Below are positions 22,929 through 53,618 of a stretch of 64,000 nucleotides of DNA, piece by piece (position 1 is the stretch's first letter; each line of letters opens with the position of its first letter). Origin of the DNA: Patescibacteria group bacterium (GTDB lineage Bacteria; Patescibacteriota; Patescibacteriia; UBA2196). The DNA lies in NCBI GenBank assembly GCA_028748975.1, contig JAQTPI010000001.1:354-64353 (forward strand), given 5' to 3'. The position numbers and the translations under genes were made by a program. The notes beneath the pieces were generated by a model. That model searched no databases. It saw only the letters and a program-made list of their open reading frames with translations, and had not been told where the DNA came from.

Positions 22929-23104
22929 TTCCAATAACCAAGAAACAATTTCCAAATAAGTTCCAAATACCAAATTCCAAATAATCATATTTTGAATTTT
23001 GGTTATTGAAATTTGTGGTTGTCCTTAGGACAACCATCCCGCAATTCTGCGGGATGCCAGCGAAGCTGGCATTTATTTGGAAATTGGAACTTGTATCTTG
23101 GAAC
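22929..23104. mobile_element. ~176-bp MITE-like element, copy 1 of 3
   Basis: Near-identical to 39031..39205 and 53443..53618. Three hairpins: 'ggttgtccttaggacaacc', 'cccgcaattctgcggg' and 'gccagcgaagctggc'. Ends 'gttccaaata...' and '...tatcttggaac' are inverted. Begins 14 bp after the M16 peptidase stop. Confidence 0.65.
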
Positions 23105-23116
23105 TTAAAAAATTTT

Positions 23117-24154
23117 ATGCCCATGCCTAAAACTTCTCACAATTTATCCTACACTTCCATCCTGCGCGTGGTCGTGGTCGCCCTCGCGCTTGGCTTCCTC
23201 TACATCGTGCGCGATGTCATCGGTTTGGTTTTTGTCTCCGTCATTTTGGCCGCCGCTTTTGACCCTTTTATTGATTTTTTTGAAAATCGAAAAATTCCGC
23301 GTGCCGTTTCCATTTTGGTCATCTATCTCATCCTCTTGGCTGTCATCAGTCTGGTTGTTGTTCTTTTAATTCCTCCGATTTCCGAGCAGGTGGGGCAATT
23401 GGCGCGCAATTTACCAGATTATTATGAACGGGTGGCCTTGGATTTAAACAGTTTACGTGACGGACAACAAAGTGTGGCCCCCACTTTGCCCCAGGCCCTT
23501 TCTGGTTTAAGCAATAATTTGGCCAAAACTACCAGTAGTGTTTTTTCCACTTTAACTGGAATTTTTGGTGGCCTGGTTTCTTTTGTTTCCGTGCTGGTCA
23601 TGACTTTCTATCTGGCCGTGCAGAAAAATGGTCTTAAATTTTTTATCAGATTTCTGACGCCCGCTGAACACCATGGTTATGTTTTGGGTCTGGCCGACCG
23701 GGTGCAAAATAAAATCGGCACCTGGTTGAGGGGACAAATGATTTTGTGTTTGGTAGTAGGCCTCGCTGTTTACGTTGGCTTGACCCTTCTTGGTGTTAAA
23801 TATGCCCTGCTGCTTGGCGTCATCGCCGGCATTACGGAAATAATTCCTTATGTCGGTCCTTTCATTGGCGCCATTCCCGGCGTCTTCATCGCTTTTTCTG
23901 ATTCTTTGCCCAAAGTCATCATGGTGGCCGCGATGTATTTTTTGGTTCAACAATTGGAAAATTACATTTTGGTGCCAAAAGTAATGCAGCGCACCACCGG
24001 CCTAAACGCCGTGGTGGTCATGGCCGCCATTTTAATTGGCGGCAAATTGGGCGGCATTGTCGGCGCGCTTTTAGCCGTGCCCGTGGTTTCCATGCTAGAA
24101 GTGTTTTTGTTGGAAAGATTCCCATATATGAGGCAGGTGGAGGAGAAATCCTAA
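23117..24154 (+). CDS. AI-2E family transporter (PerM/UPF0118)
   Basis: Multi-TM protein with 'TEIIPYVGPFIGAIPGVFIAF'. Start at MPMPKTS, downstream of the MITE copy. Confidence 0.7.
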   Translation: MPMPKTSHNLSYTSILRVVVVALALGFLYIVRDVIGLVFVSVILAAAFDPFIDFFENRKIPRAVSILVIYLILLAVISLVVVLLIPPISEQVGQLARNLPDYYERVALDLNSLRDGQQSVAPTLPQALSGLSNNLAKTTSSVFSTLTGIFGGLVSFVSVLVMTFYLAVQKNGLKFFIRFLTPAEHHGYVLGLADRVQNKIGTWLRGQMILCLVVGLAVYVGLTLLGVKYALLLGVIAGITEIIPYVGPFIGAIPGVFIAFSDSLPKVIMVAAMYFLVQQLENYILVPKVMQRTTGLNAVVVMAAILIGGKLGGIVGALLAVPVVSMLEVFLLERFPYMRQVEEKS

Positions 24155-24266
24155 AAGGGGAAGTCGTTATACGGCGTCGCCGCTCGTATCGTGATAAGTT
24201 TTACGTTTAACGACCGTTCAACAACAAACGATTGCCGAAACGGGCTGCGATGCCGTTAAACGATTA

Positions 24267-25064
24267 ATGAATTATTTTATGTTGTATATAGTGGCGACTC
24301 CCATCGGCAATTTGGAAGATATCACCTTGCGCGCCTTGCGCATTCTGAAAGAAGTGGATTATATTTTATGTGAAGATACGCGGGTGACGGCGCGACTTTT
24401 GGCGCATTATAAAATTTACCCTGTCAAATCCACCACGGGTGGTTCGCCAGAGGCGAAATTTGACAGGGTAAAAGGGAAAAAACTAATTGCTTATCATCAG
24501 CATACCGACGAAAGAAAAATAAAAGAAATCGTGAAATTGGTGGAAAATAATAATGTGGCGCTGGTAACCGATGCTGGCACGCCGGGGATTTCCGATCCGG
24601 GGAATAGATTAATTAATGAACTTCTAACCCCCTTTAGGGGAGGTGGAAACGAAACCTCGGCTAAAGCCGGTAGGAATTTTCGAATAGAACCAATACCGGG
24701 CGCGTGCGCTTTAGTAACGGCTTTATCCATAAGCGGTCTGCCCACTGATAAATTTATTTTCAAAGGTTTCGTGCCACATAAAAAGGGGAGAGAAACTTTT
24801 TTGAAAGAAGTAATCGCCAGCGCTGAAACTGTGGTCTATTATGATTCGCCCTATAGAATAATAAAAAATTTGGAAAAAATTCGCGATTTATTAGCTGGCA
24901 TTCGCGACGGATTTGCGAAACCAAAGCATTTTATTGTCTGCCGCGAACTGACCAAAAAATTTGAAACCATCTACCGCGGTTCTGCCGAGGAAATTTTGGC
25001 AGAAATAAAAAAGGAGTTCCATGAGGGAACTCCGAAGGGTGAATTTGTGGTGGTGGCTGGATAA
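24267..25064 (+). CDS. rsmI: 16S rRNA (cytidine1402-2'-O)-methyltransferase
   Basis: 'LYIVATPIGNLEDITLRALRILKEVDYILCEDTR'. An in-frame repeat insertion around 24640 ('ccccctttaggggagg') encodes 'TPFRGGG'. Confidence 0.8.
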   Translation: MNYFMLYIVATPIGNLEDITLRALRILKEVDYILCEDTRVTARLLAHYKIYPVKSTTGGSPEAKFDRVKGKKLIAYHQHTDERKIKEIVKLVENNNVALVTDAGTPGISDPGNRLINELLTPFRGGGNETSAKAGRNFRIEPIPGACALVTALSISGLPTDKFIFKGFVPHKKGRETFLKEVIASAETVVYYDSPYRIIKNLEKIRDLLAGIRDGFAKPKHFIVCRELTKKFETIYRGSAEEILAEIKKEFHEGTPKGEFVVVAG

Positions 25065-25076
25065 ACTAAGTGTTTT

Positions 25077-25313
25077 TTAATCCGGCATTTTCCCCAAATT
25101 TTTTGTTACCCAATGATCACCGTAAATGTAATTTAATTTTTCTTTATTCCAAATCCATATTTTCCAAATCAATAATTTAAAAGCCACTTTTCTATCTTCC
25201 TCAAATTCAAATAATTTATTAGAAGATTTTCTTATTTCATTATATAACCATTTACTTCTAATAAATATTAAAATACTAAGAATTAATGCAATAATTATTA
25301 ACGTGGTAGGCAT
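25077..25313 (-). CDS. small membrane protein, hypothetical
   Basis: N-terminal TM helix. Trp-rich. Confidence 0.4.
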   Translation of the reverse strand: MPTTLIIIALILSILIFIRSKWLYNEIRKSSNKLFEFEEDRKVAFKLLIWKIWIWNKEKLNYIYGDHWVTKNLGKMPD

Positions 25314-25331
25314 TTTTCCTCCTTTTAATTT

Positions 25332-25604
25332 TTATTCCCCAAAATCTTTCCCGTCTTCTGCTAGCACATTACCAACACTTTTTTCAACAGCCGGTTTTCC
25401 CGGCGGAAAATGTTTATCCAGTAGCGCCAATGATTTTTGCAGTTCTTTCATGATTTTATTTATTTCTTCTCTTACTTCTGCTACTGTGCCATCTCCATCG
25501 TCTTGTTTTAAAATTTGCAAGAAAATATTCAAAGCAATAATCAGATCGGTTTTGATTTCTTGAAGCCGGGTGCCGATATTTTCACCAGTCAGCTTAGCCG
25601 CCAT
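25332..25604 (-). CDS. hypothetical protein
   Basis: RBS 'aaggagg' (reverse complement of 25607-25613). Confidence 0.5.
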   Translation of the reverse strand: MAAKLTGENIGTRLQEIKTDLIIALNIFLQILKQDDGDGTVAEVREEINKIMKELQKSLALLDKHFPPGKPAVEKSVGNVLAEDGKDFGE

Positions 25605-25682
25605 AGGTCCTCCTTGTTTGGATTGTGAATGTGAGACAGGCTTGATTTTTACCTTATTTCATCTTAGTAAATTTATAGAAAT

Positions 25683-28231: not shown

Positions 28232-28237
28232 AACACC

Positions 28238-28353: not shown

Positions 28354-29238
28354 ATGCTTTTTGATTCGCATTGCCACCTCAATTTTTCCGTTTTTGCGGA
28401 AAATTATAGAGAAATAATCGCCGATTGCTTAAAAAAAGAAATCGGCGTTATTAATATCGGTTCGCAATTTGACACCTCCAAGCGCGCGGCCGAAATCGCG
28501 GCGGAATTTCCTAATAAAGAAATTTATGCCAGTGTTGGACTTCATCCGATTCATATTTCTGGCACCGAAGTTGACGATGAAGAGATAAAATTTAAGGGTC
28601 GCGAAGAAAAATTTGATGAAGAAAAATATCAGGAGTTAATTGATAATTATAAAAATAAAATAATTGCGGTGGGAGAAATTGGTTTGGATTATTGGCATAT
28701 ACCAATTAACAATCAACAATTAACAGTTAACAAAAAAGAAAACTGGAAAGAAAAACAAAAAGAAAGTTTTATCGCGCAACTAAATTTTGCGGTGAAAAAT
28801 AACTTACCGGTAATTTTACACGCGCGGGGCAGTAAGGAGAATTCGAACGATGCTTATGAAGATATGTTAAAAATTATCCAATTACAAATTACTAATTACA
28901 AATTACGGATTACTGGCGTCCTTCATTGTTTCGGCTCCAGTCGTAAAATCGCCCAGCAGTTTTTAGACCTCGGCTTCTACCTTGGTTTCACCGGCATCAT
29001 TACTTTCAAAAACAAAAACGTGGAAGAATTAAAAGAGGTGGTAAAAATGGCGCCACTTGATAAAATTTTGGTGGAAACCGACGCGCCCTATCTTTCACCG
29101 GAGCCCTTTCGTGGCAAAAAAAATACGCCACAAAATGTTGAATTTGTGGCGCGCCAAGTGGCGGAGTTGAAAAATACGACTTTTGAAAAAGTGTGCGAAC
29201 AAACAACCAAGAACATTGAAAAGGTTTTCAGGATTTAG
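28354..29238 (+). CDS. tatD: TatD family metal-dependent DNase/hydrolase
   Basis: 'MLFDSHCHLNF' and 'GEIGLDY'. In-frame 'aattaacaat' repeat insertion at 28703-28733. Confidence 0.85.
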   Translation: MLFDSHCHLNFSVFAENYREIIADCLKKEIGVINIGSQFDTSKRAAEIAAEFPNKEIYASVGLHPIHISGTEVDDEEIKFKGREEKFDEEKYQELIDNYKNKIIAVGEIGLDYWHIPINNQQLTVNKKENWKEKQKESFIAQLNFAVKNNLPVILHARGSKENSNDAYEDMLKIIQLQITNYKLRITGVLHCFGSSRKIAQQFLDLGFYLGFTGIITFKNKNVEELKEVVKMAPLDKILVETDAPYLSPEPFRGKKNTPQNVEFVARQVAELKNTTFEKVCEQTTKNIEKVFRI

Positions 29239-30640: not shown

Positions 30641-30648
30641 TTTGTTTA

Positions 30649-30801
30649 CTTATCCGCCTCTACTTTTCTAACTTTAACTTCTTCGCCTTCCACGCCCTCC
30701 ACAGTTAAAGTCATTTGGCAGGCCGGGCATTCAATAAAAGAGCCGGCTTCAGCCGTTTCCACTTCCCAGACATTAGCGCATTCGGGGCAAGTTATTTTCA
30801 T
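30649..30801 (-). CDS. LysW-like zinc-ribbon protein (50 aa)
   Basis: MKITCPECANVWEVETAEAGSFIECPACQMTLTVEGVEGEEVKVRKVEADK. The CPEC-x16-CPAC architecture matches LysW/ArgW carriers, but the C-terminal EDWGE tail is missing. No strong SD. Confidence 0.35.
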
Positions 30802-31002: not shown

Positions 31003-31977
31003 ATGTCAAATATTTTTTTATCAAAATTTTTGTCAGAGAAATACGGACGTAAAATTTTTATCTGTGACGAGACAAAAAATCCGACTGGTTCGCATAAGGA
31101 CCACTCTTTTGGCGTCTGGCTGGAAAAAATAAAGGAGGAGGGAAATATAAAAGACTCGGTAATTTCGTCTTCCGGCAATGCCGCGGCTTCGGCAGCATAT
31201 TTTGCGCGGCAATTTGGTTTGCTGCTGCATATTTTTGTTTCGGAAAAAATTAGTAAAGAAAAATTGGAGAAAATAAGATTTTTTGCGGATGGCGGCGTCG
31301 GAAATATCCTCCCCTTTCGAAGGGGAGGTCTCCGACAGCAGTCGGAGGGAGGGGTTGTAATTGGAAACAACAACCACCCCGGCTCTCCGCCAGCTGGCGG
31401 ATTCGCCACCCCTCCTTCGAAAGGAGGGGATAGTGACATTGAAATTAAATTAGTGGCGCGGCCAAAATTTGAAGCAGCCAAAGCAGTTAAAGAAAACGAT
31501 TGGTTATTATTGCGCTCGTCCATTAATGATGATGCGCTACTTGGATATGAGTTCTTGGCAAAAGAGCTGGATGTAATTAATCCTAAAACTATTTTTATTC
31601 CCAGTTCTTCTGGTACGCTGGCGGCGGGCTTAGCTAAATTTTTGAAATCAAAACCAGCTTTTCATTTGGTGCAAACGACAAAAGTTAATACTTTGGTTAA
31701 AAATTTTGATCAAGATTTTGTGCCGGAAGAAAAATCTTTGGCCGACGCGATTGTGGATTTAATCGGCCAGCGCCGGCCGCAAGCGGAAGAAATAATCACA
31801 AGTTCCGGTGGTTTTGGTTGGGTAATCAATAATAAAGAAATAGAATCCGCGCGAGCAGAACTAAAAGAAGCCGGGATTGAGTGTTCCTATACTTCGGCGC
31901 TGGGGCTGGCGGGAATGAAGAAAGCGGTGGAGAAAAATTTTGAAGTTAGAGAACCGATTGTTATAATTGTCACTTAG
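31003..31977 (+). CDS. PLP-dependent enzyme, tryptophan-synthase-beta-like fold (threonine synthase/cysteine synthase superfamily)
   Basis: 'DETKNPTGSHKD' is the PLP-lysine motif. Carries a ~125-nt in-frame repeat insertion at 31309-31435. Confidence 0.55.
   Translation: MSNIFLSKFLSEKYGRKIFICDETKNPTGSHKDHSFGVWLEKIKEEGNIKDSVISSSGNAAASAAYFARQFGLLLHIFVSEKISKEKLEKIRFFADGGVGNILPFRRGGLRQQSEGGVVIGNNNHPGSPPAGGFATPPSKGGDSDIEIKLVARPKFEAAKAVKENDWLLLRSSINDDALLGYEFLAKELDVINPKTIFIPSSSGTLAAGLAKFLKSKPAFHLVQTTKVNTLVKNFDQDFVPEEKSLADAIVDLIGQRRPQAEEIITSSGGFGWVINNKEIESARAELKEAGIECSYTSALGLAGMKKAVEKNFEVREPIVIIVT
31309..31435 (+). repeat. palindromic repeat modules inserted in-frame in the PLP-enzyme gene
   Basis: 'cccctttcgaaggggagg...ccgccagctggcgg...cccctccttcgaaaggagggg' encodes 'ILPFRRGGLRQQSEGG...PPAGGFATPPSKGGD'. 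Confidence 0.7.
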
Positions 31978-32059: not shown

Positions 32060-33412
32060 ATGTCTAATATTCTTTTGCTTTCCACCGACCTGGAAAAATT
32101 CTCCTACCTTATGGAAAAAGGCGGTTTTGGTTTGACGACTTTTGCAGACCAAAAAGAAAAGGCAATACCGGAAAACTGGCCAGTGGATTTTGTGGAATAT
32201 AAAGGGAAAAATTCGACACTGGATATTTTGATGGATGAAAAAATAAAAGAAATAAAAGAAAAAACCGGCGCGCGTTTGGTTTATGTTTTTAAAAATAGTT
32301 TTTTAATAGAAAAAGAACTGGCAAAATTAGATTTTTCACCGCTTAATCCGCCAGCGGAATTAACAGAAAAAATTGAAGGCAAAATTAGTCAGGCTGATTT
32401 TTTTCCGGAAATAAAAGAATTTTTTCCGGAATTTATAATTGCCAAACCTGGCGAAAAAACTTGGGAAGAAATAAAAAAAGAATTAGGCGAAAATTTAATC
32501 GCGCAGTTCAACACCAGTCATTCTGGCGCGGGAACTTTTGAACTTTCGGAAAATTTGTGGCAAGAATGGCAAAAGAAATTTCCGCATCGGCCAATTCGTA
32601 TCAGTAAATTTATTGTCGGTGAAACTTTAACTTTAAATCTGGTAGTTTTGCCAACAGCTATAATTCTGGGCGTGCCAAGCAAGCAACTGACCGGCACGCC
32701 GGGTTTGACTGAACATAAATTCACCACCGTCGGCAATGCCTGGATTACTTTTGACGGAGAAACAAAAAATCAAATGGAAACAATTGCCAAGGGTGTCGGC
32801 GCAATTTTACAAAAGAATAATTTTTTTGGTCCGGCGGGTTTGGATTTGATAGTTGAAAAAATACCCAGCACCGATGTCATCCCCGCGCAGGCGGGGATCC
32901 AGAAAAACGGTTCCTGGATTCCGGGTCAAGCCCGGAATGACAGTAGTGGTGAGCGAAAAACTTATTTGATTGAAATTAACGCGCGCCAGCCGGCCTCTTT
33001 CAATTTGGAAAGTTGGCTCGCGAAATTGGCAAACAGAAAAGGGCTATTTGATTATTTGGTTGATTTTTGGCAGGGGAAAATTTTGCCAGCGGAAATGGAG
33101 CCACTCGCGATTTCGGGCGGACAGATTGTGGTGCGTGCCAAAAGCGACTGGTGTGGTATAATAAAATCGACCCCAAAAACAGGCGTTTATGGCCTGGATA
33201 ATGGCCAACTGGTGTTAGTGACCGAGAGGCTCTTTTTAGCCTCAAAAAACGAGTTTTTAGCCCATTTTTGCCCTATAGGACGGCAATGTTTGCCTGGAGG
33301 CGAGGTTTTTCGGGTGCAGACAGGGAAGAACTTTATTGATTCTAATGGTGGGCTAAGTGAAGAGATTTTGACGATAATTGAGAAATTGAAGAAGGAAATA
33401 ATTTTTTATTAA
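32060..33412 (+). CDS. ATP-grasp family ligase
   Basis: C-terminal 'GLDLIVEK...TYLIEINARQP' is the ATP-grasp E-x-N-x-R motif. Start MSNILLL after repeat 31981..32058. In-frame repeat insertion at 32881-32942. Confidence 0.5.
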   Translation: MSNILLLSTDLEKFSYLMEKGGFGLTTFADQKEKAIPENWPVDFVEYKGKNSTLDILMDEKIKEIKEKTGARLVYVFKNSFLIEKELAKLDFSPLNPPAELTEKIEGKISQADFFPEIKEFFPEFIIAKPGEKTWEEIKKELGENLIAQFNTSHSGAGTFELSENLWQEWQKKFPHRPIRISKFIVGETLTLNLVVLPTAIILGVPSKQLTGTPGLTEHKFTTVGNAWITFDGETKNQMETIAKGVGAILQKNNFFGPAGLDLIVEKIPSTDVIPAQAGIQKNGSWIPGQARNDSSGERKTYLIEINARQPASFNLESWLAKLANRKGLFDYLVDFWQGKILPAEMEPLAISGGQIVVRAKSDWCGIIKSTPKTGVYGLDNGQLVLVTERLFLASKNEFLAHFCPIGRQCLPGGEVFRVQTGKNFIDSNGGLSEEILTIIEKLKKEIIFY

Positions 33413-35732: not shown

Positions 35733-38700
35733 ATGAATGAAAAATTAAATCCTCAACAAAAAATAGCCGTAGAGCAGACGGAAGGCCCACTACTTATCGT
35801 CGCGGGCGCGGGGACCGGCAAAACCACGGTGATTACGGAAAAAATCGCCTATTTAATTATGGAAAAGAAAATCAAGGCCGACGAAGTTTTGGCCCTGACT
35901 TTCACGGACAAAGCCGCCGGAGAAATGGAAGAACGCGTGGACAAACTTCTGCCCTATGGCTATGTGGATTTGTGGGTGATGACTTTTCATTCTTTTTGCG
36001 AAAGAATTTTGCAAATCCACGGTCTGGACATCGGCCTCGCCAATGATTTCAAACTTTTGAACCAAACCGATCAGTGGCTTTTGGCCCGCGAAAATTTGGA
36101 CAAATTTAATTTGGATTATTATCGACCATTGGGCAACCCCACCAAATTCATTCACGCTTTGATCAAGCATTTTTCCCGCTGTAAAGATGAAGAAATTTGG
36201 CCGGGGGATTATTTGAAGTACGCGGAAAATTTGAAAATAAATTTGGATTCAATGGAGGCGAGCGGGGGAGTGGCATTAAAACATGAAAGCATTAAAACAT
36301 TAAAGCAAGACCCCCTCCCTCCGACTGCTGTCGTAGGACTCCCCCTTATCAAGGGGGAGAGCTTAAAAGCTCCCCTCCTTTATAAGCCTGCCTCGCCAAG
36401 TCAAGGCGGGGATGGGGTTGGGGGAGGTAATAAAGAAATAGATATTTCAGAAATTAGGCGCCTAGAAGAAGTGGCCAACGCCTACCACGTTTATCAAAAT
36501 TTACTGCTGGAATCCGGCAGTTTGGATTTCGGCGATCTAATAAATTATACTTTGAAACTTTTCCGCGAGCGGCCGAATATCTTGAAAAAATATCAGGAAC
36601 AATTCAAATATATTTTGGTGGATGAATTTCAGGACACCAATTTCGCGCAATATGAACTGGTAAAATTATTGTCGGCTGGGCACCAGAATTTGACCGTGGT
36701 CGGCGACGACGACCAGTCAATCTACAAATTCCGCGGCGCCAGCGTTTCCAACATTTTGCAGTTTAAGGAAGATTTTCCAGAGTCCAAAGAAATTTTTTTG
36801 AATCAAAATTATCGCTCCAGCCAGAATATTTTGGATCTGGCGTATAATTTTATTCAATTGAATAATCCGGAGAGGCTGGAGGTGAAACTAAGAAATCAGA
36901 AACTAGAAAACAGAAATCAGGAACTGACCAAAAAATTGATAGCGAATACGAATGAAATGGGGATTATTGAGCATCTACATTTTTCTTCCGAGACAGAGGA
37001 GGTAGCTGGCGTCATTAATAAAATTGTAGAATTATATAACACAGAAAGCCGAGGTAAAGAAAATACACAAGACCTGAAGGACGGAGATTCCCGATTTCCG
37101 ATTTCTGATTTCCGATTACCGTCGTCATGGAACGACTTTGCCATTTTAATCCGCGCCAATAATCAGGCGGAAGTTTTTATCAATGCCTTGCGCGGTGCCG
37201 GCATTCCCTATAATTTTGTGGCGTCAAAGGGCTTGTATTCCAAAGAAATAATTTTGGATATTTTTGCTTACTTGAAACTCTTGGACAATTATCATGAATC
37301 CTTGGCTTTGTGGCGCGTTTTAAACATGCCGATGGTCGGCATCAAAATTGAAGATTTGATGGAAATTACCAATTTTGCCAAACGCAAAGCAATTTCGCTT
37401 TTTGAAACCTGCGCGCAAATTAATTTATTCAATAATATACAGCCAGAAACCAAGCGCAAAGTGGAAAAAATTTTGAAATTAATTTCACTCCACACCAAAT
37501 TGGCCAAAGAAAAATCCATCAAAGCAGTCATTCTTAAATTTTTGGAAGATTTCAATTACAGCCAGTTTTTGCTGGCCAAAAACGATGAGTTGTCTTTTGC
37601 ATTTGTCAATCAGCTCATAAAAAAGATTGATGATTTCCAAAAGTCGTTTGCTGACAAGTCGCTGAAAAATTTCATGCGTTTGATTGAACTGGAAGTGGAA
37701 TCGGGCGAGGCCGGGAGCTTGAGCAAAGAATTGGAAGAAGGGCCGGAAGCGGTGAAAATTATGACCGTGCATTCGGCCAAGGGCTTGGAATTTAAATATG
37801 TTTTTATCGTCAATTTGGTGGATAAAAGATTTCCCTCTCTGGAGCGCTCCGAAACGATTGAAATTCCAGACGCCCTGGTCAAAGAAATTATTCCTTCCGG
37901 CGACATTCACCTGCAGGAAGAACGGCGCTTGTTTTATGTGGCCATGACGCGCGCCAAAACCGGCTTATTTTTCACTTCGGCGGAAAATTATGGCGGCGCG
38001 CGCAAGAAAAAATTGTCGCAGTTTTTGTATGAGACGGGTTTGTCATTAAAACATGAAAACATTAAAACATTAAAGCAAGAAGTAGATAATAAATTAACAA
38101 TTAACAACCAACAATTAGCAATAAACAAGGAACAAAAACCCTTATTACTTATTACTCATTACTCATTACCCGTTACTTTTTCCTTCTCCGCCCTTAAGGC
38201 CTATGAAACCTGTCCCTATCAATATCATCTGGGTTACGTTGTTAAAATCCCCACGCCCGGCCGCCCTAATTTCAGTTTTGGCAAAACCATGCACACCACT
38301 CTCCAAAGATTTTTTTCTTTGGCAAAAGAACGTGATAGTATAAAACAGAGTGATTTATTTGGTAAGCAGAAGTTAGAAGTCGGAAGTCGGGAGTTGGGAG
38401 TTAATTTGCCACCGCTAGAAGAATTATTAAAATTATATAAAGAATCTTGGATTGACGACTGGTATGATGATCAAAAACAAAAAGAAGAATATCGCGCGCG
38501 CGGCGAACAATCGCTTAAAAATTTATATGAACAATTAAAAGAAAATGGCGCGCCGCAAGTTTTCGCCTTGGAAAGAGATTTCAATTTAAAAATTGGCGGT
38601 TATACAATTAAAGGTAGAATTGATCGAGTTGATTTAATAAAAAGGCCAGATTCGCAAAATTCGCAGGAGATTAGCAATAATTCGCAAAACCAAACATCAC

Positions 38701-39023
38701 CGACGGTACGGGCGGTTGAGGTAATAGATTACAAAACAGGCACACCCAAGAGAGAGAAGTTTGTAGAAAAAGATCAGCTCTTAATTTACCAAATGGCGGG
38801 CGAAGAAGTTTTTGGCTGGCCGGTGGAAAAATTAACTTTTTATTATCTTGACAACAATTCCGCGGTTTCTTTTTTAGGTACCGCGGAAGACAAAGAAGAA
38901 CAAAAGGGAGAAATTTTGGAAACAATTGAAAAAATTAATAGTGGTGATTTTTCTGCCACGCCCAATCAATTCAAATGTAAATATTGCGACTTCGTGAGCA
39001 TTTGTAAATTTAGAGAAATATAA
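35733..39023 (+). CDS. UvrD/PcrA-type ATP-dependent DNA helicase fused to a C-terminal PD-(D/E)xK (Cas4/AddB-like) nuclease with Fe-S Cys cluster
   Basis: Walker A 'AGAGTGKT', 'YILVDEFQDTN', 'VGDDDQSIYKFRGA', and C-terminal 'CPYQYHLGY...FKCKYCDFVSICKF'. At least six in-frame repeat insertions (e.g. 36273-36432 and 38042-38130). Confidence 0.8.
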   Translation: MNEKLNPQQKIAVEQTEGPLLIVAGAGTGKTTVITEKIAYLIMEKKIKADEVLALTFTDKAAGEMEERVDKLLPYGYVDLWVMTFHSFCERILQIHGLDIGLANDFKLLNQTDQWLLARENLDKFNLDYYRPLGNPTKFIHALIKHFSRCKDEEIWPGDYLKYAENLKINLDSMEASGGVALKHESIKTLKQDPLPPTAVVGLPLIKGESLKAPLLYKPASPSQGGDGVGGGNKEIDISEIRRLEEVANAYHVYQNLLLESGSLDFGDLINYTLKLFRERPNILKKYQEQFKYILVDEFQDTNFAQYELVKLLSAGHQNLTVVGDDDQSIYKFRGASVSNILQFKEDFPESKEIFLNQNYRSSQNILDLAYNFIQLNNPERLEVKLRNQKLENRNQELTKKLIANTNEMGIIEHLHFSSETEEVAGVINKIVELYNTESRGKENTQDLKDGDSRFPISDFRLPSSWNDFAILIRANNQAEVFINALRGAGIPYNFVASKGLYSKEIILDIFAYLKLLDNYHESLALWRVLNMPMVGIKIEDLMEITNFAKRKAISLFETCAQINLFNNIQPETKRKVEKILKLISLHTKLAKEKSIKAVILKFLEDFNYSQFLLAKNDELSFAFVNQLIKKIDDFQKSFADKSLKNFMRLIELEVESGEAGSLSKELEEGPEAVKIMTVHSAKGLEFKYVFIVNLVDKRFPSLERSETIEIPDALVKEIIPSGDIHLQEERRLFYVAMTRAKTGLFFTSAENYGGARKKKLSQFLYETGLSLKHENIKTLKQEVDNKLTINNQQLAINKEQKPLLLITHYSLPVTFSFSALKAYETCPYQYHLGYVVKIPTPGRPNFSFGKTMHTTLQRFFSLAKERDSIKQSDLFGKQKLEVGSRELGVNLPPLEELLKLYKESWIDDWYDDQKQKEEYRARGEQSLKNLYEQLKENGAPQVFALERDFNLKIGGYTIKGRIDRVDLIKRPDSQNSQEISNNSQNQTSPTVRAVEVIDYKTGTPKREKFVEKDQLLIYQMAGEEVFGWPVEKLTFYYLDNNSAVSFLGTAEDKEEQKGEILETIEKINSGDFSATPNQFKCKYCDFVSICKFREI
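36273..36432 (+). repeat. ~160-nt composite repeat inserted in-frame in the helicase gene
   Basis: 'cattaaaacatgaaagcattaaaacattaaagcaag' plus 'ccccctccctccgactgctgtcg...cccccttatcaagggggag...cccctcctttataagcctgcctcgccaagtcaaggcggg'. Confidence 0.7.
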
Positions 39024-39030
39024 CAAAAGC

Positions 39031-39205
39031 TCCAATAACCAAGAAACAATTTCCAAATAAGTTCCAAATACCAAATTCCAAAAAATTATATTTTGAATTT
39101 TGGTTATTGAAATTTGTGGTTGTCCTTAGGACAACCATCCCGCAATTCTGCGGGATGCCAGCGAAGCTGGCATTTATTTGGAAATTGGAACTTGTATCTT
39201 GGAAA
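39031..39205. mobile_element. ~176-bp MITE-like element, copy 2 of 3
   Basis: Starts 8 bp after the helicase stop. The ORF-track 'MKFVVVLRTTIPQFCGMPAKLAFIWKLEL' N-terminus lies inside it and is rejected. Confidence 0.65.
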
Positions 39206-39214
39206 TTTATTTTT

Positions 39215-41055: not shown

Positions 41056-41200
41056 TTTCCGCGCCTACCTGCCTCGCCGGCCCGCTTCGACGCGAGGCGA
41101 GTAGGCGGGTCGGCGAAACAAACAACCACCCCCAGCCGATTACTATCGGCTGACCCCTCCTTCGAAAGGAGGGGATAGCGACGCAGTGTCCCCCTTGTTA
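41056..41200. repeat. cluster of palindromic repeat modules
   Basis: 'gcctcgccggcccgcttcgacgcgaggcgagtaggcgggtcggcg', 'cagccgattactatcggctg' and 'cccctccttcgaaaggagggg'. Followed by 'ttactttattactttgttattttattac'. Confidence 0.7.
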
Positions 41201-41231
41201 CTTTATTACTTTGTTATTTTATTACTAACCT

Positions 41232-42296
41232 ATGCAAAAAAAACTTGACCAACTCAAAGGCGAATTTTTGGAAAAGTTGAATTTAACTAAAACCGAAAGA
41301 GATTTGGAAAAAATCTATATGGACTATTTTGGCCGCAAAGGAAAATTGACGGAAGTTTTTAAGGATGTTAAAAATGTGGCCGTGGAAGAAAAGCCAATTA
41401 TCGGGAAAATTATTAATGATATCAAAATTGAAGCAGAGAAAGTTTATAGTGAAATGAAAGAGACACTAACTAACAATAAACAACAAACAATAAACAATAA
41501 ACAACTTTTTGATCCAACGGTGCCGGGAACACTGCGTGAAGTTGGTTCTTTGCATCCGACCACGATTATTAAAAATGAATTGAATGACGCGTTTCGCCAG
41601 ATGGGTTTTGAAATTTATGATCCGGCAGAAGAAATTACGAGTGAGGGTTATGCTTTTGACAGCATGAATTTTCCACCTGACCATCCGGCGCGCGAATCAA
41701 TGGATACGTTTTGGATAAAACAACAAACAACAAACAACAAACAACAAACAACCAACGGATTTGAGAGATTATGCTTAAGACCACACTTAACGGGAGCAAG
41801 CGTGCGTTTTATGCAAACGCACCAGCCGCCGTTTCGGTTTGTTTATCCGGGCCGGGTTTTCCGAAGTGAAGCCACGGACGCCGGACATGAAGCGACTTTT
41901 TATCAATATGAAGCTTTAATTGTGGATGATAAAATCTCTTTTTCCGCCGGAAAAATTTTAGTCAAAGCGATTTTGGAGAGGGTTTTTGGTAAGGAAATTA
42001 AAATCCGCATGCGCGCGGGATTTTTTCCTTTTGTGGAACCGGGTTTTGAAATTGATATGGAATGCCAGGTTTGTGGAGGGAAAGGATGCTCGGTTTGCAA
42101 ACACAAGGGCTGGGTGGAAATTATGCCGGGCGGCGCACCGCATCCGAATGTTTTGAAAGCGGGAGGATTAGATCCGAAAAAATGGCAGGGGTTTTATATC
42201 AATGTCGGTTTGGACCGACTCGCGATGATGAAATTTGGCATTGACGACATTCGTCTGATGCATTCCGGCGATTTGAGATTTTTGAAACAGTTTTAA
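41232..42296 (+). CDS. pheS: phenylalanyl-tRNA synthetase alpha subunit
   Basis: 'FPPDHPARESMDTFWI' and 'GWVEIMPGG'. Two in-frame A/C-rich repeat insertions (41467-41506 and 41718-41757). Confidence 0.9.
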   Translation: MQKKLDQLKGEFLEKLNLTKTERDLEKIYMDYFGRKGKLTEVFKDVKNVAVEEKPIIGKIINDIKIEAEKVYSEMKETLTNNKQQTINNKQLFDPTVPGTLREVGSLHPTTIIKNELNDAFRQMGFEIYDPAEEITSEGYAFDSMNFPPDHPARESMDTFWIKQQTTNNKQQTTNGFERLCLRPHLTGASVRFMQTHQPPFRFVYPGRVFRSEATDAGHEATFYQYEALIVDDKISFSAGKILVKAILERVFGKEIKIRMRAGFFPFVEPGFEIDMECQVCGGKGCSVCKHKGWVEIMPGGAPHPNVLKAGGLDPKKWQGFYINVGLDRLAMMKFGIDDIRLMHSGDLRFLKQF

Positions 42297-44139: not shown

Positions 44140-44235
44140 TTTCTGGATTCCCGCTTTCGTGGGAATGACACGACTATCGACGACCTCGCCCCGACCCTCT
44201 CCTTGTAAAGGAGAGGGGGACGAACCTTTTCCCTT
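44140..44235. repeat. repeat modules including 'gacgacctcgccccgaccctctccttgtaaaggagagggggacga'
   Basis: The same module is at 49465-49525. Both are followed by 'ttattac' tandem repeats preceding a start codon. Confidence 0.7.
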
Positions 44236-44279
44236 ATTACTTTATTGCTTTATTACTCTATTACTTTATTACCGAGCTT

Positions 44280-46422: not shown

Positions 46423-49065
46423 ATGCTACTCTCACTAAACTGGCTAAAAACCTACGTCGATTTACCAAAAAACCTGACTGCCAAAAAACTGGCGGCGGAC
46501 TTGACCATGACCACTTGCGAAGTGGAACGGGTGGAAAATCTGGCGGAAAAGTTTGACAACATGGTTGTTGGTAAAATTATTTCTATAAAAAATCATCCTA
46601 ATGCTGATAAACTTAAAATTGTCATGACGGATATAGGCAATCAGAAATTAGAAATCAGAAATCAGGGGCAAAAAAATATTGTTCAAATTGTCTGCGGGGG
46701 AACGAATCTACGCGAAAATATGCTCGTGGCGGTGGCCCTGCCCGGCGCCAAAGTGCGCTGGCATGGCGAGGGCGAGTCGGTGGTTATGGAAAAGGCAAAA
46801 ATCCGGGGCGAAGAATCTTTTGGCATGATTTGCGCCAGTAGCGAAATCGGTCTTGCTGATGTGTTTCCGGCTGAAAGCGATCGAGAAATTATTGATTTAA
46901 GCGGAATTAAGAAAATAAAAGCCGGACAAAACCTGGCCGAGGCTTTGGGCATGGACGATATGATTATTGAAATTGAAAATAAGACAATTACTAACAGACC
47001 TGACTTATGGAATCATCTTGGAATAGCGAGGGAGTTATCAGTCATATATAATACAAGTTTGAAGGCTAAAAATTTCCAATTTCCAATTTCCAATTTCCAA
47101 AAAAATTTCAAATCTAAAATTTCAAATTCCAAACTTGACATTCAAATCGATGATAAACAAGCTTGTTCCAGATATATTGGTTGTTTAGTAAAAAATGTTA
47201 AAGTCGCGGCGTCGCCGGAATGGCTGCAAAAAAGTTTGGCGAGCGTGGGCATTCGGCCGATTAACAACATTGTGGACATCACTAATTATGTCATGCTGGA
47301 CGTCGGACAGCCGATGCATGCTTTTGATAAAGCAAAGCTTTATCAAAAGCAATTTCCAATTTCCAAGATACAATTTCCAAACGATAAAAATATAAATATC
47401 ATTGTAAGAAAAGCCAAAAATGGTGAAAAAATAAAATCACTGGACGGAATAGAAAGAAAACTTGATGATTCAATGTTGATTATTGCGGACGCTAAAAAAC
47501 CAATCGCCATTGCCGGAATTATGGGCGGGGAGGAATCGGGCATTGATGAAAAAACAAATGAAATTATTTTTGAGGCGGCGAATTTCAACGCCATGTCAAT
47601 TCGGAAAACTTCGCAAAAATTGGGTTTGCGTTCCGAATCTTCCAATCGGTTTGAAAAAAATCTGGATCCGAATTTTGCCGAGCTGGCCATGGCGCGCGCG
47701 CTAAAATTAGTCAAAGAACTTTGTCCCGAAGCGGAAATTGTTGCTTACCAAGATGAAAATTTGGTGAAGGAGAAAAAAATAGTGATAAAAGTAGATCATA
47801 GTTTCCTTGAGAAAAAGATCGGGCAGACGCTTGATATGAAGGATATAGTAAAAAAACTAGAGAGCCTTGGTTTTAAGGTTGATACTAAAAAAGATAAAAA
47901 AGAAATAACGAAATATCGCGCCTCGTCCCGCAATTCTGCGGGACTCGGCGCTGGAAATAACGATATAATTTATCAAATTGAAGTTCCGAGCTGGCGGGCG
48001 ACTGGGGACATTTTCATTCCTGAGGATATAGTAGAAGAAGTAGCGCGGGTGATTGGTTATGACAATTTGGCAGAGCACAAAATTCTGGTGGAATTGGCAA
48101 AACCCAAAATTCAAATGGAGCAAATTTTGGAGAACAGAACCAAGAAATTTTTGGCTTTGGCCGGCGGTTTTAGCGAGGTTTTTAACTATCCTTGGGCCAA
48201 AGAAATTACCTTGAAAATACTTGGAAAAAATGATAAAATTATAAGTGTGGCAAACCCCCAAAGCGACGATAATTCGGCCCTGCAAAATAGCCTAATTCCA
48301 AACTTGCTTAAAAACACCGAAGACAATCTGCGCTATTTTGATGAGTTTAAAATTTTTGAATTGGCGCGGGTGTATCTGCCGGAATTTAATAAGATTGATA
48401 GTAAATTTCAAGACAAACTTCCCAATCAGCCAAAAATGTTGGCCGGTGTTGTGGTGACGCAAAAAGACAAAAACGCATTTTTGGAGCTAAAGGGAGTATT
48501 AGAAGGACTATTTAAGAAACTAGAAACTAGGAATTGGAAACTCGTCATCCCGAGCGAGCGGAGCGAAGCGATGGGATCTTTTTCATATTTAGATAAAGAA
48601 AAACTTTTGTCTATTGAAATCGACGGGAAAGAAATTGGTTTTATTGGTGAGTTGAAAGAAAATATTTATCGTCAGTTTGGTTTCAAAAACAGAAAAGTGG
48701 CGTTGTTTGAAATTAATTTTGATAAGTTGGTTTTGGCAGAGCAAAAAACGGAAGGTGTAAAATACGCGCCCTTGCCGCAGTTTCCATCAATAATTCGTGA
48801 TTTGGCGTTTGAATTGGATTGGAAAGTCAGGTGGTCTGAGATAGTCGAAGGGATTCTTCGCTTCGCTCAGAATGACAAACTCATTAAAAATGTGGAATTT
48901 CTTTCTGAGTTTGGACTGGGCGACAGAAAATCAGTGGCTTTCAGAATTGTCTATCAAGCCGACCGGACGCTTAAAGAGGAAGAGGTGGAAGTGGTGGAAA
49001 AGAAAATTGTGGAAATAATAAGTAAAAAATTTAACGCGCGGCTTCGCGCGGCGCTGGGGAAATAA
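46423..49065 (+). CDS. pheT: phenylalanyl-tRNA synthetase beta subunit
   Basis: Canonical start MLLSLNWLKTYVD, tRNA-binding and B3/B4 regions, C-terminal FDX-like domain. Several in-frame repeat insertions (46635-46665, 47071-47135, 47340-47395, 47925-47944, 48540-48585, 48845-48880). Confidence 0.9.
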   Translation: MLLSLNWLKTYVDLPKNLTAKKLAADLTMTTCEVERVENLAEKFDNMVVGKIISIKNHPNADKLKIVMTDIGNQKLEIRNQGQKNIVQIVCGGTNLRENMLVAVALPGAKVRWHGEGESVVMEKAKIRGEESFGMICASSEIGLADVFPAESDREIIDLSGIKKIKAGQNLAEALGMDDMIIEIENKTITNRPDLWNHLGIARELSVIYNTSLKAKNFQFPISNFQKNFKSKISNSKLDIQIDDKQACSRYIGCLVKNVKVAASPEWLQKSLASVGIRPINNIVDITNYVMLDVGQPMHAFDKAKLYQKQFPISKIQFPNDKNINIIVRKAKNGEKIKSLDGIERKLDDSMLIIADAKKPIAIAGIMGGEESGIDEKTNEIIFEAANFNAMSIRKTSQKLGLRSESSNRFEKNLDPNFAELAMARALKLVKELCPEAEIVAYQDENLVKEKKIVIKVDHSFLEKKIGQTLDMKDIVKKLESLGFKVDTKKDKKEITKYRASSRNSAGLGAGNNDIIYQIEVPSWRATGDIFIPEDIVEEVARVIGYDNLAEHKILVELAKPKIQMEQILENRTKKFLALAGGFSEVFNYPWAKEITLKILGKNDKIISVANPQSDDNSALQNSLIPNLLKNTEDNLRYFDEFKIFELARVYLPEFNKIDSKFQDKLPNQPKMLAGVVVTQKDKNAFLELKGVLEGLFKKLETRNWKLVIPSERSEAMGSFSYLDKEKLLSIEIDGKEIGFIGELKENIYRQFGFKNRKVALFEINFDKLVLAEQKTEGVKYAPLPQFPSIIRDLAFELDWKVRWSEIVEGILRFAQNDKLIKNVEFLSEFGLGDRKSVAFRIVYQADRTLKEEEVEVVEKKIVEIISKKFNARLRAALGK
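47071..47135 (+). repeat. 'caatttccaa' tandem repeat inserted in-frame in pheT
   Basis: 'aatttccaatttccaatttccaatttccaaaaaaatttcaaatctaaaatttcaaattccaaac' encodes 'NFQFPISNFQKNFKSKISNSK'. It resembles the arms of the 176-bp MITE. Confidence 0.7.
47925..47944 (+). repeat. MITE hairpin 'gtcccgcaattctgcgggac' inside pheT (in-frame, 'SRNSAGL')
   Basis: Identical core to the 'cccgcaattctgcggg' hairpin of the three MITE copies and of 56958. Confidence 0.7.
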
Positions 49066-49092: not shown

Positions 49093-49108
49093 GAAGTAAA
49101 TAAGCATT

Positions 49109-49354: not shown

Positions 49355-49505
49355 ACTTTCCTCCCTATTTTGATTGTTTTAGCTCAATTGAGCTGGTTTT
49401 AGCAGAGACGTGGCTCTGCCGTGAATTACTAATTCAATTCTATCGTACCTAAAATTTTATGTCAAGCGACGGCTGGACGACCTCACCCCGACCCTCTCCT
49501 TGTAA

Positions 49506-51737
<2,232 letters not shown>

Positions 51738-51741
51738 TTTT

Positions 51742-51884
51742 ACCTCCCCCAACCCCCTCCTTATAAAGGAGGGGAGCTCCTGGCATCTCCCCCTTGATAA
51801 GGGGGAGCGCGAGGGAGTCAGTTAGCTGATATATTAATTTGTCATTCCCGCGATCCGCCAGCTGGCGGAGGGAATTCAGAAAAT
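51742..51884. repeat. cluster of palindromic repeat modules
   Basis: 'cccctccttataaaggagggg', 'ctcccccttgataagggggag' and 'gtcattcccgcgatccgccagctggcggagggaat'. Confidence 0.7.
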
Positions 51885-52307
51885 ATGGTAAAATCCAAGG
51901 AAACAATTAATTGTCAAGAAAATAGATTATCAGAAGCAGAGTGGAAGCTTATTACAAAAACAGCAGCGGAATTTTTGCAGGCCGATATGAAAGGATTGGT
52001 CGACTGGTATACTAGTCTATTAACAGAAGATGGTAAAAAATTTGTTGCCGAAGAATTAAAATTAGAAGACGGAGAAATAATGGTTCCTTTTGTTGTTTAT
52101 CTTTACCAGAAACCCAAAGAAGAGAGAAAAAAAATAATTACCGCAATAAATCATCTGCCAGAATTTTTTGGTCTGCCAGGAATCGGCGGTCACCATAAAG
52201 TAGGAACCTTTATTGATCATCTTGATAAAAAAATAATAGTAAAAAGAATTAACAAGAGGAATGACTATTTTATAGGGAAACCACTTGAGCCTTTAATAGA
52301 AGAATGA
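51885..52307 (+). CDS. hypothetical protein
   Basis: No family recognised. Confidence 0.4.
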   Translation: MVKSKETINCQENRLSEAEWKLITKTAAEFLQADMKGLVDWYTSLLTEDGKKFVAEELKLEDGEIMVPFVVYLYQKPKEERKKIITAINHLPEFFGLPGIGGHHKVGTFIDHLDKKIIVKRINKRNDYFIGKPLEPLIEE

Positions 52308-52432
52308 CGAAGAAATAGTTAAACCTGTTTTATCCCTATTTGACAACCCAAACATGCCTGTGCTATCATTACAGCATAAGGCCTCCAGGGCCTTTTAAAA
52401 TCGATAAAAAATAGCTTTAAAAGCGGAATTTA

Positions 52433-52548
52433 TCCCCTCCTTTCGAAGGAGGGGTGCCGAGTGAAACGAGGCGGGGTGGTTGTAACTTCAACCACAACCC
52501 CTCTGGGTTTCGCTTCGCTCAACCCACCTCCCCTTCGAAAGGGGAGGA
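52433..52548. mobile_element. ~115-bp MITE-like element, second copy of the 15457..15571 family
   Basis: Terminal repeats 'cccctcctttcgaaggagggg'/'cctccccttcgaaaggggagg'. The 3' end supplies the secE SD. Confidence 0.6.
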
Positions 52549-52559
52549 TAACAAAACAT

Positions 52560-52742
52560 ATGCCCAACAAATTAATAACTTACATCAAAGATTCCAAAAC
52601 CGAACTTAAGAAAGTTGTTTGGCCGACCAAAAAAATGGTCACCAACCACACGCTTTTGGTCATTGGTTTTGTGCTGGCCATGGCCGTCTTTTTAGGCGCG
52701 GTGGATTTTGGATTGAATAAATTGATTTCAAGTATCATTTAA
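52560..52742 (+). CDS. secE: preprotein translocase subunit SecE
   Basis: 60 aa with 'KDSKTELKKVVWPTKKMVTNHTLLVIGFVLAMAVFLGAVDF'. Lies upstream of nusG. Confidence 0.7.
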   Translation: MPNKLITYIKDSKTELKKVVWPTKKMVTNHTLLVIGFVLAMAVFLGAVDFGLNKLISSII

Positions 52743-52886
52743 ACAAATAGACACAGATATTAGACAGATAGATACAAATACACAGATTCCTGTATTCCAG
52801 GTCAAGCCCGGAAAGACAAGGAGAATAAACCCGTGTATCTGTGAAAATCTGTAGTCAAACTGTGAAAATCTGTTTTTAATATAACT

Positions 52887-53432
52887 ATGCCACGACAAAC
52901 CCTAAATCAAGGCAAACGCTGGTACGCCATTCACACCTATTCCGGCTACGAAGACAGCGTGGTCCACAACCTCAAACAAAGAATCGAGTCCTTGGACATG
53001 CAGGACAGAATTTTTAATGTCTTGGCGCCCAAAGAAAAAAAGATTAAAATTAAAAACGGCAAGCGCTCGGTCGTGGAAGAAAAAATTTATCCCGGTTATG
53101 TTTTGGTGGAAATGGAAGTGACCGACGCCTCTTGGTATGTCGTGCGCAATACGCCGAATGTCACCGGTTTCATCGGCGCCGGCACCACGCCCTCGCCTTT
53201 AAGTGAAAAAGAAATTGAAGAAATGCAGAAACGCATGGGCATTGAAGAGCCGAAATATAAAATTGATATTTCCATCAATATGCCGGTCAGAGTGGTGGAC
53301 GGGCCCTTCAAAGAAATGGAAGGCAAAGTGGCGGAAATTGATGAAGCGCGCGGCCGCGTCAAAGTTCTTGTTTCCATGTTCGGCCGCGAAACTCCGGTGG
53401 ATTTGGACTTTTTGCAAATTAAGAAAATATAA
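52887..53432 (+). CDS. nusG: transcription termination/antitermination factor NusG
   Basis: NGN domain 'RWYAIHTYSGYEDSV' and KOW 'VRVVDGPFKEMEGKVAEID'. Confidence 0.9.
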   Translation: MPRQTLNQGKRWYAIHTYSGYEDSVVHNLKQRIESLDMQDRIFNVLAPKEKKIKIKNGKRSVVEEKIYPGYVLVEMEVTDASWYVVRNTPNVTGFIGAGTTPSPLSEKEIEEMQKRMGIEEPKYKIDISINMPVRVVDGPFKEMEGKVAEIDEARGRVKVLVSMFGRETPVDLDFLQIKKI

Positions 53433-53442
53433 CAGTAATAAT

Positions 53443-53618
53443 TTCCAATAACCAAGAAACAATTTCCAAATAAGTTCCAAATACCAAATTCCAAATAATC
53501 ATATTTTGAATTTTGGTTATTGAAATTTGTGGTTGTCCTTAGGACAACCATCCCGCAATTCTGCGGGATGCCAGCGAAGCTGGCATTTATTTGGAAATTG
53601 GAACTTGTATCTTGGAAC
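53443..53618. mobile_element. ~176-bp MITE-like element, copy 3 of 3
   Basis: Starts 10 bp after the nusG stop. Nearly identical to copies 1 and 2. Confidence 0.65.

Follow-up and report, generated by a model that had tools for sequence, protein, structure and literature searches.

Repetitive extragenic palindromic (REP) sequences and the bacterial interspersed mosaic elements (BIMEs) built from them are extragenic, GC-rich hairpin mosaics located between co-directional operon genes, with which they are co-transcribed, and their stems are kept while their loops vary. To our knowledge, BIMEs make no target-site duplication. REP units are imperfect palindromes of 20-40 nt that form mosaics in both orientations and carry a conserved 5' tetranucleotide (GTAG-like), which is recognized by a Y1 transposase of the RAYT type with a REP-flanked gene. 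The mobile GC clusters of yeast mitochondria and the double-hairpin elements of Allomyces mitochondrial DNA likewise consist of GC hairpins that spread in AT-rich spacers and occasionally in frame; these compact, AT-rich genomes have, as far as we know, no known transposase. Palindromic repeats with a comparable spread of hairpins are described for Volvox organelles (PMC2670323). Prokaryotic MITEs (transposable elements of the miniature inverted-repeat type), e.g., Correia/NEMIS, RUP, ERIC, and Nezha, are shorter than 500 bp and AT-rich, carry terminal inverted repeats (TIRs), occupy intergenic AT-rich sites, and give rise to strongly folding transcripts (PMC10969869). The pneumococcal BOX element (boxA-boxB(n)-boxC) adopts a long stem, SPRITE is similar to a rho-independent terminator, and such elements cluster and insert into each other (PMC10969869). 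Rickettsia palindromic elements (RPEs) are, in the part of PMC10969869 that treats them (citing Ogata 2000/2002), palindromes of 100-150 bp in a small, host-dependent genome, found between genes as well as in frame in housekeeping genes at tolerant surface loops. In the tiny, gene-dense genomes of Patescibacteria (candidate phyla radiation, CPR), selfish repeats of this kind might be expected to be rare, and no report of MITE-, REP-, or RPE-like repeats from them was found in the literature searched. The stretch of 64,000 nt analyzed here (positions 354 to 64,353 of contig JAQTPI010000001.1 from the Patescibacteria group bacterium assembly GCA_028748975.1; hereafter the window) shows the opposite. 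It hosts three copies of a 174-nt element of AT-rich inverted arms and GC-rich hairpins, which we explain, with moderate confidence, as a young, lineage-restricted, non-autonomous mosaic palindromic repeat, i.e., selfish DNA of the BIME/NIME/MITE/RPE kind, comparable to repeats of E. coli, Neisseria, or Rickettsia.

The first-pass annotation of this DNA had described three near-identical, structured copies, each docked just after the stop codon of an M16 peptidase, a helicase, or the nusG gene. Our comparison, which covers the 64-kb window and the three full copies available in it, confirmed number, places, and docking. The copies share a 174-nt non-coding unit (TCCAATAACC...CTTGGAA), with 172-174 out of 174 positions matching.

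22930..23103, forward strand: copy A, 174-nt unit between the M16 peptidase stop codon (22915) and the AI-2E transporter start (23117)
39031..39204, forward strand: copy B, 172/174 to A and C, between the helicase stop codon (39023) and the TT-ATG of dciA (39215)
53444..53617, forward strand: copy C, 174/174 to A, between the nusG stop codon (53432) and a promoter-like site (53650-53677)

Both mismatches of B are located in the loop of an inner AT-rich hairpin, and the divergence between copies amounts to 0-1.1%. A and C extend their identity over a common stretch of 191 nt with a single mismatch (22923-23113 and 53437-53627). The gap from stop codon to shared unit measures 14, 7, and 11 nt in A, B, and C, respectively. 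Pfam agrees with the upstream genes (M16 peptidase, UvrD/PD-(D/E)XK helicase, NusG) and assigns those downstream to AI-2E transporter, DciA (MDD5289609.1), and L11, the latter encoded by rplK starting at 53701, downstream of the promoter-like site. At sites A and B, nearly the whole spacer consists of the element, which stops 10-13 nt short of the following ATG; neither of these two sites has a visible Shine-Dalgarno sequence in front of that ATG. All three full copies take one orientation relative to the transcription of the flanking, co-directional genes. A single frame, on the reverse strand, is fully open across the element, and a search of 5.8 billion proteins gave no homologue for it. 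The left junction of copy A, comprising the M16 stop codon and the first 30 nt of the element, recurs in an independent assembly of short reads from this strain (L010), whose M16 gene is identical in 1269/1269 nt. Its contig then breaks inside the element, as would be expected for a true multi-copy repeat; repeats of this kind break short-read assemblies of these organisms.

The architecture of the element is given here for copy A.

22925..22965, forward strand: left AT-rich arm of degenerate TTCCAAA heptamers, pairing with the right arm
22963..23008, forward strand: inner AT-rich hairpin (CCAAATACCAAATTCCAAA ... TTTTGAATTTTGGTTATTG)
23017..23072, forward strand: GC-rich core of three abutting, perfect hairpins (H1-H3)
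23067..23107, forward strand: right AT-rich arm of TTTGGAA-type heptamers, inverted repeat of the left arm

Equivalents of the left arm are found at 39027-39066 (B) and 53439-53479 (C), those of the core at 39118-39173 (B) and 53531-53586 (C). The arms had been described as mutual inverted repeats and the core as three consecutive perfect hairpins, and both statements hold, the hairpins being perfect in all copies. The inverted repeats extend over 41 nt with 78% complementarity and perfect TCCAA/TTGGA tips. H1 (GGTTGTCC-TTA-GGACAACC; 23017-23035 in copy A), H2 (CCCGCA-ATTC-TGCGGG; 23038-23053, with a 9-bp stem including CAT/ATG spanning 23035-23056), and H3 (GCCAGC-GAA-GCTGGC; 23056-23070, full feature 23054-23072) are 15-22 nt each and abut, separated by AT dinucleotides. 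They are not to be expected by chance, since shuffled sequences yield only 0.00-0.03 matches. GC content is 58% in the core and 25% in the arms. The predicted fold is a long AT-rich outer stem closing a four-way junction of one AT hairpin and H1-H3. The folding analysis that had been proposed as a check returned a strong structure on either strand, with z-scores of about -9 to -10: RNA of the forward strand folds at -73.2 kcal/mol (z -9.7), RNA of the reverse strand at -77.0 kcal/mol (z -10.1), and DNA at -45.3 (z -8.9), while the core alone reaches -37.7 kcal/mol (z -6.7).

Examination of the same junctions in relatives allowed an estimate of the age of the element. Two contigs encoding a NusG protein identical to that of the window (L008, L009; nusG DNA 93% identical, 36/182 third codon positions changed) have an unrelated nusG-rplK spacer containing other GC hairpins, and a more distant syntenic relative (L015; PheT 70% identical) hosts a gene for a 104-aa GIY-YIG protein in this spacer. 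Three states of the nusG-rplK junction are found across the window and these relatives. The helicase-dciA junction is empty in L012-14 (DciA 89% identical), reading ...GAAGTATAA-TT-ATG (also given as AGAGAAGTATAA-TT-ATG), with dciA starting 2 nt after the helicase stop codon (junction at 2411-2412 of L012). A member of the same 90% DciA cluster (L023, 1443-1638) carries 196 nt of GTCATYCC-type nested hairpins at this place, and L011 (DciA 87%; 1133-1294) has AATTTTC/GAAAATT arms together with one different hairpin, 162 nt in all. With four states, namely this element, GTCATYCC-type hairpins, AT-heptamer arms with a hairpin, and empty, the helicase-dciA junction is a recurrent insertion hot spot. 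The helicase C-terminus groups the window and the empty L012 as sisters and places L011 outside; the junction was consequently either filled independently or filled and then precisely emptied.

The copies have diverged from each other much less than strains have at synonymous positions, which marks the element as a recent arrival. This agrees with the recent mobility proposed in the first-pass annotation, as do the differing nusG-rplK spacer of a sister strain and the empty helicase-dciA junction. Neither of the two findings named there as speaking against mobility was made: the copies have not diverged beyond the above 0-1.1%, and the element is not a conserved 3' untranslated region, because the junctions of relatives are empty or hold unrelated hairpin mosaics. 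Spacers are seen to be rebuilt between strains with identical proteins, and the three-copy element provides the clearest evidence of a process active now. Strains could be told apart at a fine scale by the content of their spacers.

The ends of the element were evaluated by an exhaustive boundary scan, which detected no direct repeat of at least 3 nt flanking all three copies. Compared with the empty relatives, site B contains a clean insertion of 189 nt (39024-39212) without duplication, 15 nt longer than the shared 174-nt unit. Looking for a target-site duplication by this empty-site comparison had been suggested beforehand; none exists at B and none is consistent across the three copies. 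Beyond the 174-nt unit, the copies are not alike (7-11 nt on the left and 8 nt on the right side). Since the flanks differ while the interior is 99-100% identical, the ends are ragged or imprecise. All three upstream genes end, including the stop codon, in one octamer, which occurs at only these three out of 63 gene ends.

22908..22915, 39016-39023, and 53425-53432, forward strand: AAATATAA, end of the upstream gene, native and not part of the element

The corresponding P values are 2.5e-5 for AAATATAA and 2.5e-4 for TATAA, for a pattern picked after the fact. The octamer was considered as a part of the element and rejected, as the helicase gene of L012 ends in GTATAA and nusG of L015 in AAAATATAA, i.e., in (A/G)TATAA, both without the element. 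Being native in element-free relatives, AAATATAA is likely a preferred target context outside the element.

Parts of the element also occur on their own. The first-pass annotation had listed a rearranged partial copy at 56944-57000 and one of the hairpins inside pheT. The former is real and corresponds to an inverted core of slightly larger extent (66 nt alignment, 82% identity), and the latter was recovered as an exact 18-mer accompanied by two arm-like pieces in the same gene.

56941..57005, reverse strand: arm-less, inverted, diverged core copy in the spacer between the L,D-transpeptidase and dCMP deaminase genes
47926..47943, forward strand: H2 alone, exact 18-mer in frame in pheT, inside a B5-domain insertion of 16-19 codons
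47067..47127, forward strand: arm-like stretch, (AATTTCC)n, within the pheT reading frame; 77% to the left arm over 61 nt, E 8e-10
47351..47381, forward strand: another arm-like piece within the pheT reading frame; 90% to element positions 8-38 over 31 nt

In the inverted core, which adjoins other hairpin families, the stems are retained and each of the three loops is altered (TTA>TG, ATTC>GAAT, GAA>GGA). The H2 loop is the exact reverse complement of the original (ATTC to GAAT), and H1 shows one compensatory T:A to C:G change. Alignment of the window's PheT (MDD5289619.1) with PheT of L016 (72%) and L015 (70%) revealed H2 and both arm pieces to be lineage-specific insertions at variable loops. 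The B5-domain insertion carrying H2 is absent from both relatives, and the stretch at 47067-47127 sits at a loop that varies in all relatives. Same or other loops of L015 and L016 hold other heptamer arrays (GAGACAA; GTGTCAA) or CCCCTCTCC-type hairpins. Within pheT, H2 is nested in an outer CGCGCC/GGCGC stem, with the direct repeat GAAATAACGA(A)ATAT on either side. A perfect palindrome with a 15-bp stem (47319-47351) immediately precedes the second arm-like piece; it opens a lineage-specific insertion and consists of native codons (AFDKAKL) followed by their reverse complement, which we read as a signature of fold-back or template switching. The in-frame insertions in pheT are sub-modules of 18-61 nt, and the full 174-nt element was found between genes only.

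A scan of metagenomes for H1-H2-H3 junctions returned two loci. One of them, from another metagenome (L007), has a core 97% and arms about 70% identical to those of the window and a fourth hairpin, and follows an unrelated gene; the other (L006) has the same stems with different loops. Four distinct core sequences are available altogether. In a genome-collection scan, a 22-mer of H2 (CATCCCGCAATTCTGCGGGATG) gave five matches (L001-L005) in unrelated bacteria (Uhrbacteria, Bacteroidota, Roseibium), all of them isolated spacer hairpins with the rest of the element unmatched; at least one of them has A and T runs on its sides and resembles a terminator. H2 alone is consequently generic or convergent and uninformative about the element.

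These pieces belong to a larger population. The window contains 86 GC-rich perfect hairpins compared with 7.6 in shuffled sequence, 50 of them in the non-coding 14% of a sequence that is 86% coding, and relatives show a comparable 10-fold hairpin excess. Recurrent families include nested GTCATYCC...GGRATGAC hairpins, CCCCTCCTT-N3-AAGGAGGGG hairpins, and arrays of AT-rich 7-8-mers (TTATTAC, AATTAAC, AGCATTAA, GAGACAA). Module pairs of 90-100% identity are shared, in either orientation, between spacers and open reading frames (ORFs). In-frame modules interrupt the Pfam domains of the helicase, TGT, a PALP enzyme, TatD, IleRS, PheT, GyrB, and GatB, some of them being 88-91% identical to modules in spacers or other ORFs; essential enzymes tolerate the same modules in their reading frames. 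Composed of modules, which also move singly, the element is the longest and youngest repeat of this genome-wide hairpin and heptamer population, which occupies most spacers and is found in frame in many housekeeping genes.

In comparison to the described systems, the element resembles REP/BIME of E. coli and other proteobacteria in that GC hairpins form a mosaic with other motifs, in either orientation, between co-directional genes, with a stable RNA and DNA structure, no target-site duplication, conserved stems, and variable loops. It differs from them by the lack of any sequence similarity, by the long AT heptamer arms enclosing the hairpins, by the copying of a 174-nt composite as a whole, and by modules entering coding regions in frame. 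No GTAG-type tetranucleotide foot is present 5' of its hairpins. Neither a REP-associated tyrosine transposase (RAYT, including the PF01797 type) nor any other transposase, integrase, or reverse transcriptase was detected among the 63 window ORFs, which represent housekeeping genes or small unknowns. Like BOX and SPRITE, the element is modular, rich in hairpins, and located at the 3' end of genes, but its sequence is unrelated, it has no clear U-tract, it combines AT arms with three GC hairpins, and its host belongs to another phylum. As with RPEs, pieces of it are found in pheT and other modules in the helicase, tgt, gyrB, gatB, and IleRS genes. RPEs, in contrast, are inserted whole and encode a conserved peptide, whereas only sub-modules of 18-61 nt are found in ORFs here. 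The GC clusters of organelles share the short GC hairpins in AT-rich target contexts and the fold-back signatures, but have unrelated sequences and reside in organelles, while in the present case long inverted AT arms enclose the hairpins as a package that is copied whole.

The first-pass annotation had called the element MITE-like and had named a terminator or small-RNA gene as an equal alternative. In the strict sense of the former term, it would be a deletion derivative of an insertion sequence (IS), moved in trans by a DDE transposase acting on TIRs of the TTTCCAAT...ATTGGAAA type and inserting at, and duplicating, TA or TAA. Much of the described character stands: a structured, multi-copy, non-coding repeat of 174 nt with fitting size and AT-richness, imperfect 41-nt TIRs with perfect tips, three dispersed near-identical copies, and presence or absence varying at orthologous sites, all of them MITE traits (PMC10969869). 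In L007, homologous arms enclose a different internal cargo, as is typical of MITE families. Membership of this class proper is not established. The insertion at B, with its known empty site, is clean, without duplication and with different terminal bases, although young MITE copies are expected to have flanking direct repeats. The ends are not kept beyond the 174-nt unit despite an interior of 99-100% identity, no partner IS or transposase is found among the window ORFs, and sub-modules such as the core alone or H2 alone move without arms. Copies A and C do have TA or TAA on both sides; these flanks, which B lacks, are located within the stretch that A and C share and hence are not independent of each other. 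TA or TAA is frequent at stop codons. Plasmid and phage BLAST searches gave no match, the core has no match in viral contigs, and a 20-mer of the arm has only five chance matches there, inside phage genes. We consider a classical MITE unlikely. The array of a TIGR-Tas system was also thought of and dropped, as the element does not form a tandem array of spacers.

A functional intercistronic RNA module, i.e., a terminator or attenuator, a 3' end stabilizer, or a small RNA whose identity is kept by selection or gene conversion, would account for the position directly after the stop codon in gene orientation, for the very stable structure, and for H3 being followed by AUUUAUUU. At C, the element is located between the nusG stop codon and the promoter-like site of rplK, where a terminator is expected, and the core stems are kept across metagenomes while loops vary, with one compensatory change. 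The searches gave no support to this alternative. Rfam 15 returned 0 matches at gathering score for the whole window and, for the element alone at E<=10, only noise (best 18 bits versus a threshold of 40, E 0.14); a tRNA and tmRNA scan found none, and a consensus scan found neither promoter nor terminator inside any copy. The AUUUAUUU after H3 is interrupted and does not form a canonical U-tract, whereas clear hairpin plus T-run terminators elsewhere in the window (e.g., spacers 11537-11685 and 61715-61859) show that the organism does use canonical ones. Furthermore, dciA looks co-transcribed with the helicase, its start lying 2 nt after the helicase stop codon in a relative, and an efficient terminator at B would cut it off, so that transcription must largely pass through the element. 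These junctions are without the element in close relatives, the two strands fold equally well, and selection cannot explain 100% identity of arms with 25% GC. An RNA module of this kind is therefore quite improbable. The right arm was likewise evaluated as a promoter for the downstream gene and rejected, as no acceptable -35/-10 pair was found by scan or by eye. That assembly or binning turned a single repeat into three is scarcely credible. The source is a metagenome-assembled genome, and contigs built from short reads of this strain end inside the element, but such a break is expected of a true multi-copy repeat. Each copy is located between different, intact, syntenic housekeeping genes on one contig, B has private substitutions and private ends, and L010 independently reproduces the junction at A.

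For the mosaic palindromic repeat favored here, the following course of events may be proposed. Modules that also occur and move alone, namely TTCCAAA-heptamer AT arms, an AT hairpin, and the GC hairpins H1-H3, make up a composite, which as a whole was probably copied into three or more tight junctions of co-directional genes, after the stop codon and in a TATAA context, without a clear target-site duplication and with slightly ragged ends. The copying may depend on the fold-back structure of the DNA itself, either, during replication or repair, by template switching or by a strand transfer that hairpins mediate, or via an unseen, hairpin-recognizing enzyme of the RAYT or IS200-IS605 type. A DDE transposase working by cut-and-paste is less likely to be responsible. 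The preference for these routes is based on the ragged ends, the absent duplication, the flipped loop of the inverted core, and the fold-back palindrome, as well as on the direct repeats around H2, the heptamer slippage arrays, and the modules moving singly in both orientations. In a sequence that is 86% coding, selection would let insertions persist only at gene junctions or, in frame, in protein loops that tolerate them, and such selective survival would explain the docking after stop codons. The element is probably transcribed passively within polycistronic mRNA, where its structure of about -73 kcal/mol would act at most as a 3' end protector or partial attenuator, similar to REP/BIME, and we infer that it functions neither as an efficient terminator nor as a gene.

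Several observations weigh against this explanation. It has only three full copies and 64 kb of genome behind it, and the proposed template switching is drawn from sequence signatures. Copies A and C can be read as TAA|TTTCCAAT...TTGGAACT|TAA, a reading compatible with TA or TAA having been duplicated by a transposase of the IS630 or IS5 type. Between genomes, the core is kept much better than the arms (97% versus about 70%), which could reflect function and not a fast turnover of the arms. Of the two RNA strands of the inverted core, the sense strand forms the stabler fold due to one G.U pair (-34.8 versus -29.5 kcal/mol). Together with the single orientation relative to transcription and the AUUUAUUU after H3, this makes some selection at the RNA level possible.

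A broader extension is possible, but on balance doubtful: a previously undescribed process acting throughout the phylum Patescibacteria might continually seed short GC hairpins and heptamer arrays into gene junctions and in-frame surface loops, with the 174-nt element as its youngest visible product. Its targets would include loops of PheRS, GyrB, GatB, TGT, IleRS, and the AddA-like helicase. It could be driven by hairpin-mediated template switching or by an unrecognized hairpin-specific enzyme, for which the small GIY-YIG or PD-(D/E)XK nuclease genes sharing the spacers would be candidates. If true, this process would produce hypervariable spacers and protein loops between near-identical strains and would represent a bacterial counterpart of the mitochondrial GC clusters and the Rickettsia RPEs. 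The system lends itself to tests of how structured selfish DNA is propagated in minimal genomes and of what it does to operon expression and protein loops.

Small nuclease genes were observed at two places. The free-standing GIY-YIG nuclease gene of L015 (16950-17384; Pfam E 2.4e-9) has ATCCC...GGGAT nested hairpins on both sides, an arrangement that may link small nuclease genes to hairpin modules. In the window, a small gene for a PD-(D/E)XK nuclease (PDDEXK_3; 21147-21590) is located one gene upstream of copy A.

The remaining in-frame modules of the window are distributed as follows.

14350-14382: IleRS gene
17483-17532: tgt
28703-28735: TatD gene
31304-31437: PALP enzyme gene
32879-32943: further in-frame module
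36258-36430 and 38036-38137: helicase gene
41467-41499 and 41717-41749: pheS
46648-46680 and ~48560-48600: pheT
51355-51460: gyrB
62463-62512: gatB

The insertion in gyrB consists of (GAGACAA)n and a GTCATTCCGAG hairpin. It is common to L015, and some in-frame insertions are therefore old. Other very young module pairs, in inverted orientation, were found as well: 51740-51779 with 57084-57123 (40 nt, 100%) and 15451-15509 with 41122-41180 (59 nt, 92%). The 174-nt element is accordingly not the sole recently copied sequence. A further family of CCC(C/T)TCCTT-N3-AAGGAG(A/G)GGG hairpins is represented at 41133-41231, 44179-44279, and 49476-49571, the last two copies being 94% identical over 50 nt. 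In each case, the hairpin is followed by a (TTATTAC)n array reaching up to the start codon of pheS, a glycosyltransferase gene, and gyrB, respectively.

The longest "spacers" of the window host small zinc-ribbon-like ORFs of the CxxC...CxxC type on the reverse strand (6769-6975, 7005-7169, and 30646-30801), which are without Pfam assignment. Many genes do without a Shine-Dalgarno sequence, their ATG following AAATTT or AAAACT directly after a hairpin module (e.g., 9584, 16556, 28354, 35733, and 43278), and a strong AGGAGG precedes a minority of genes, several small ORFs among them.

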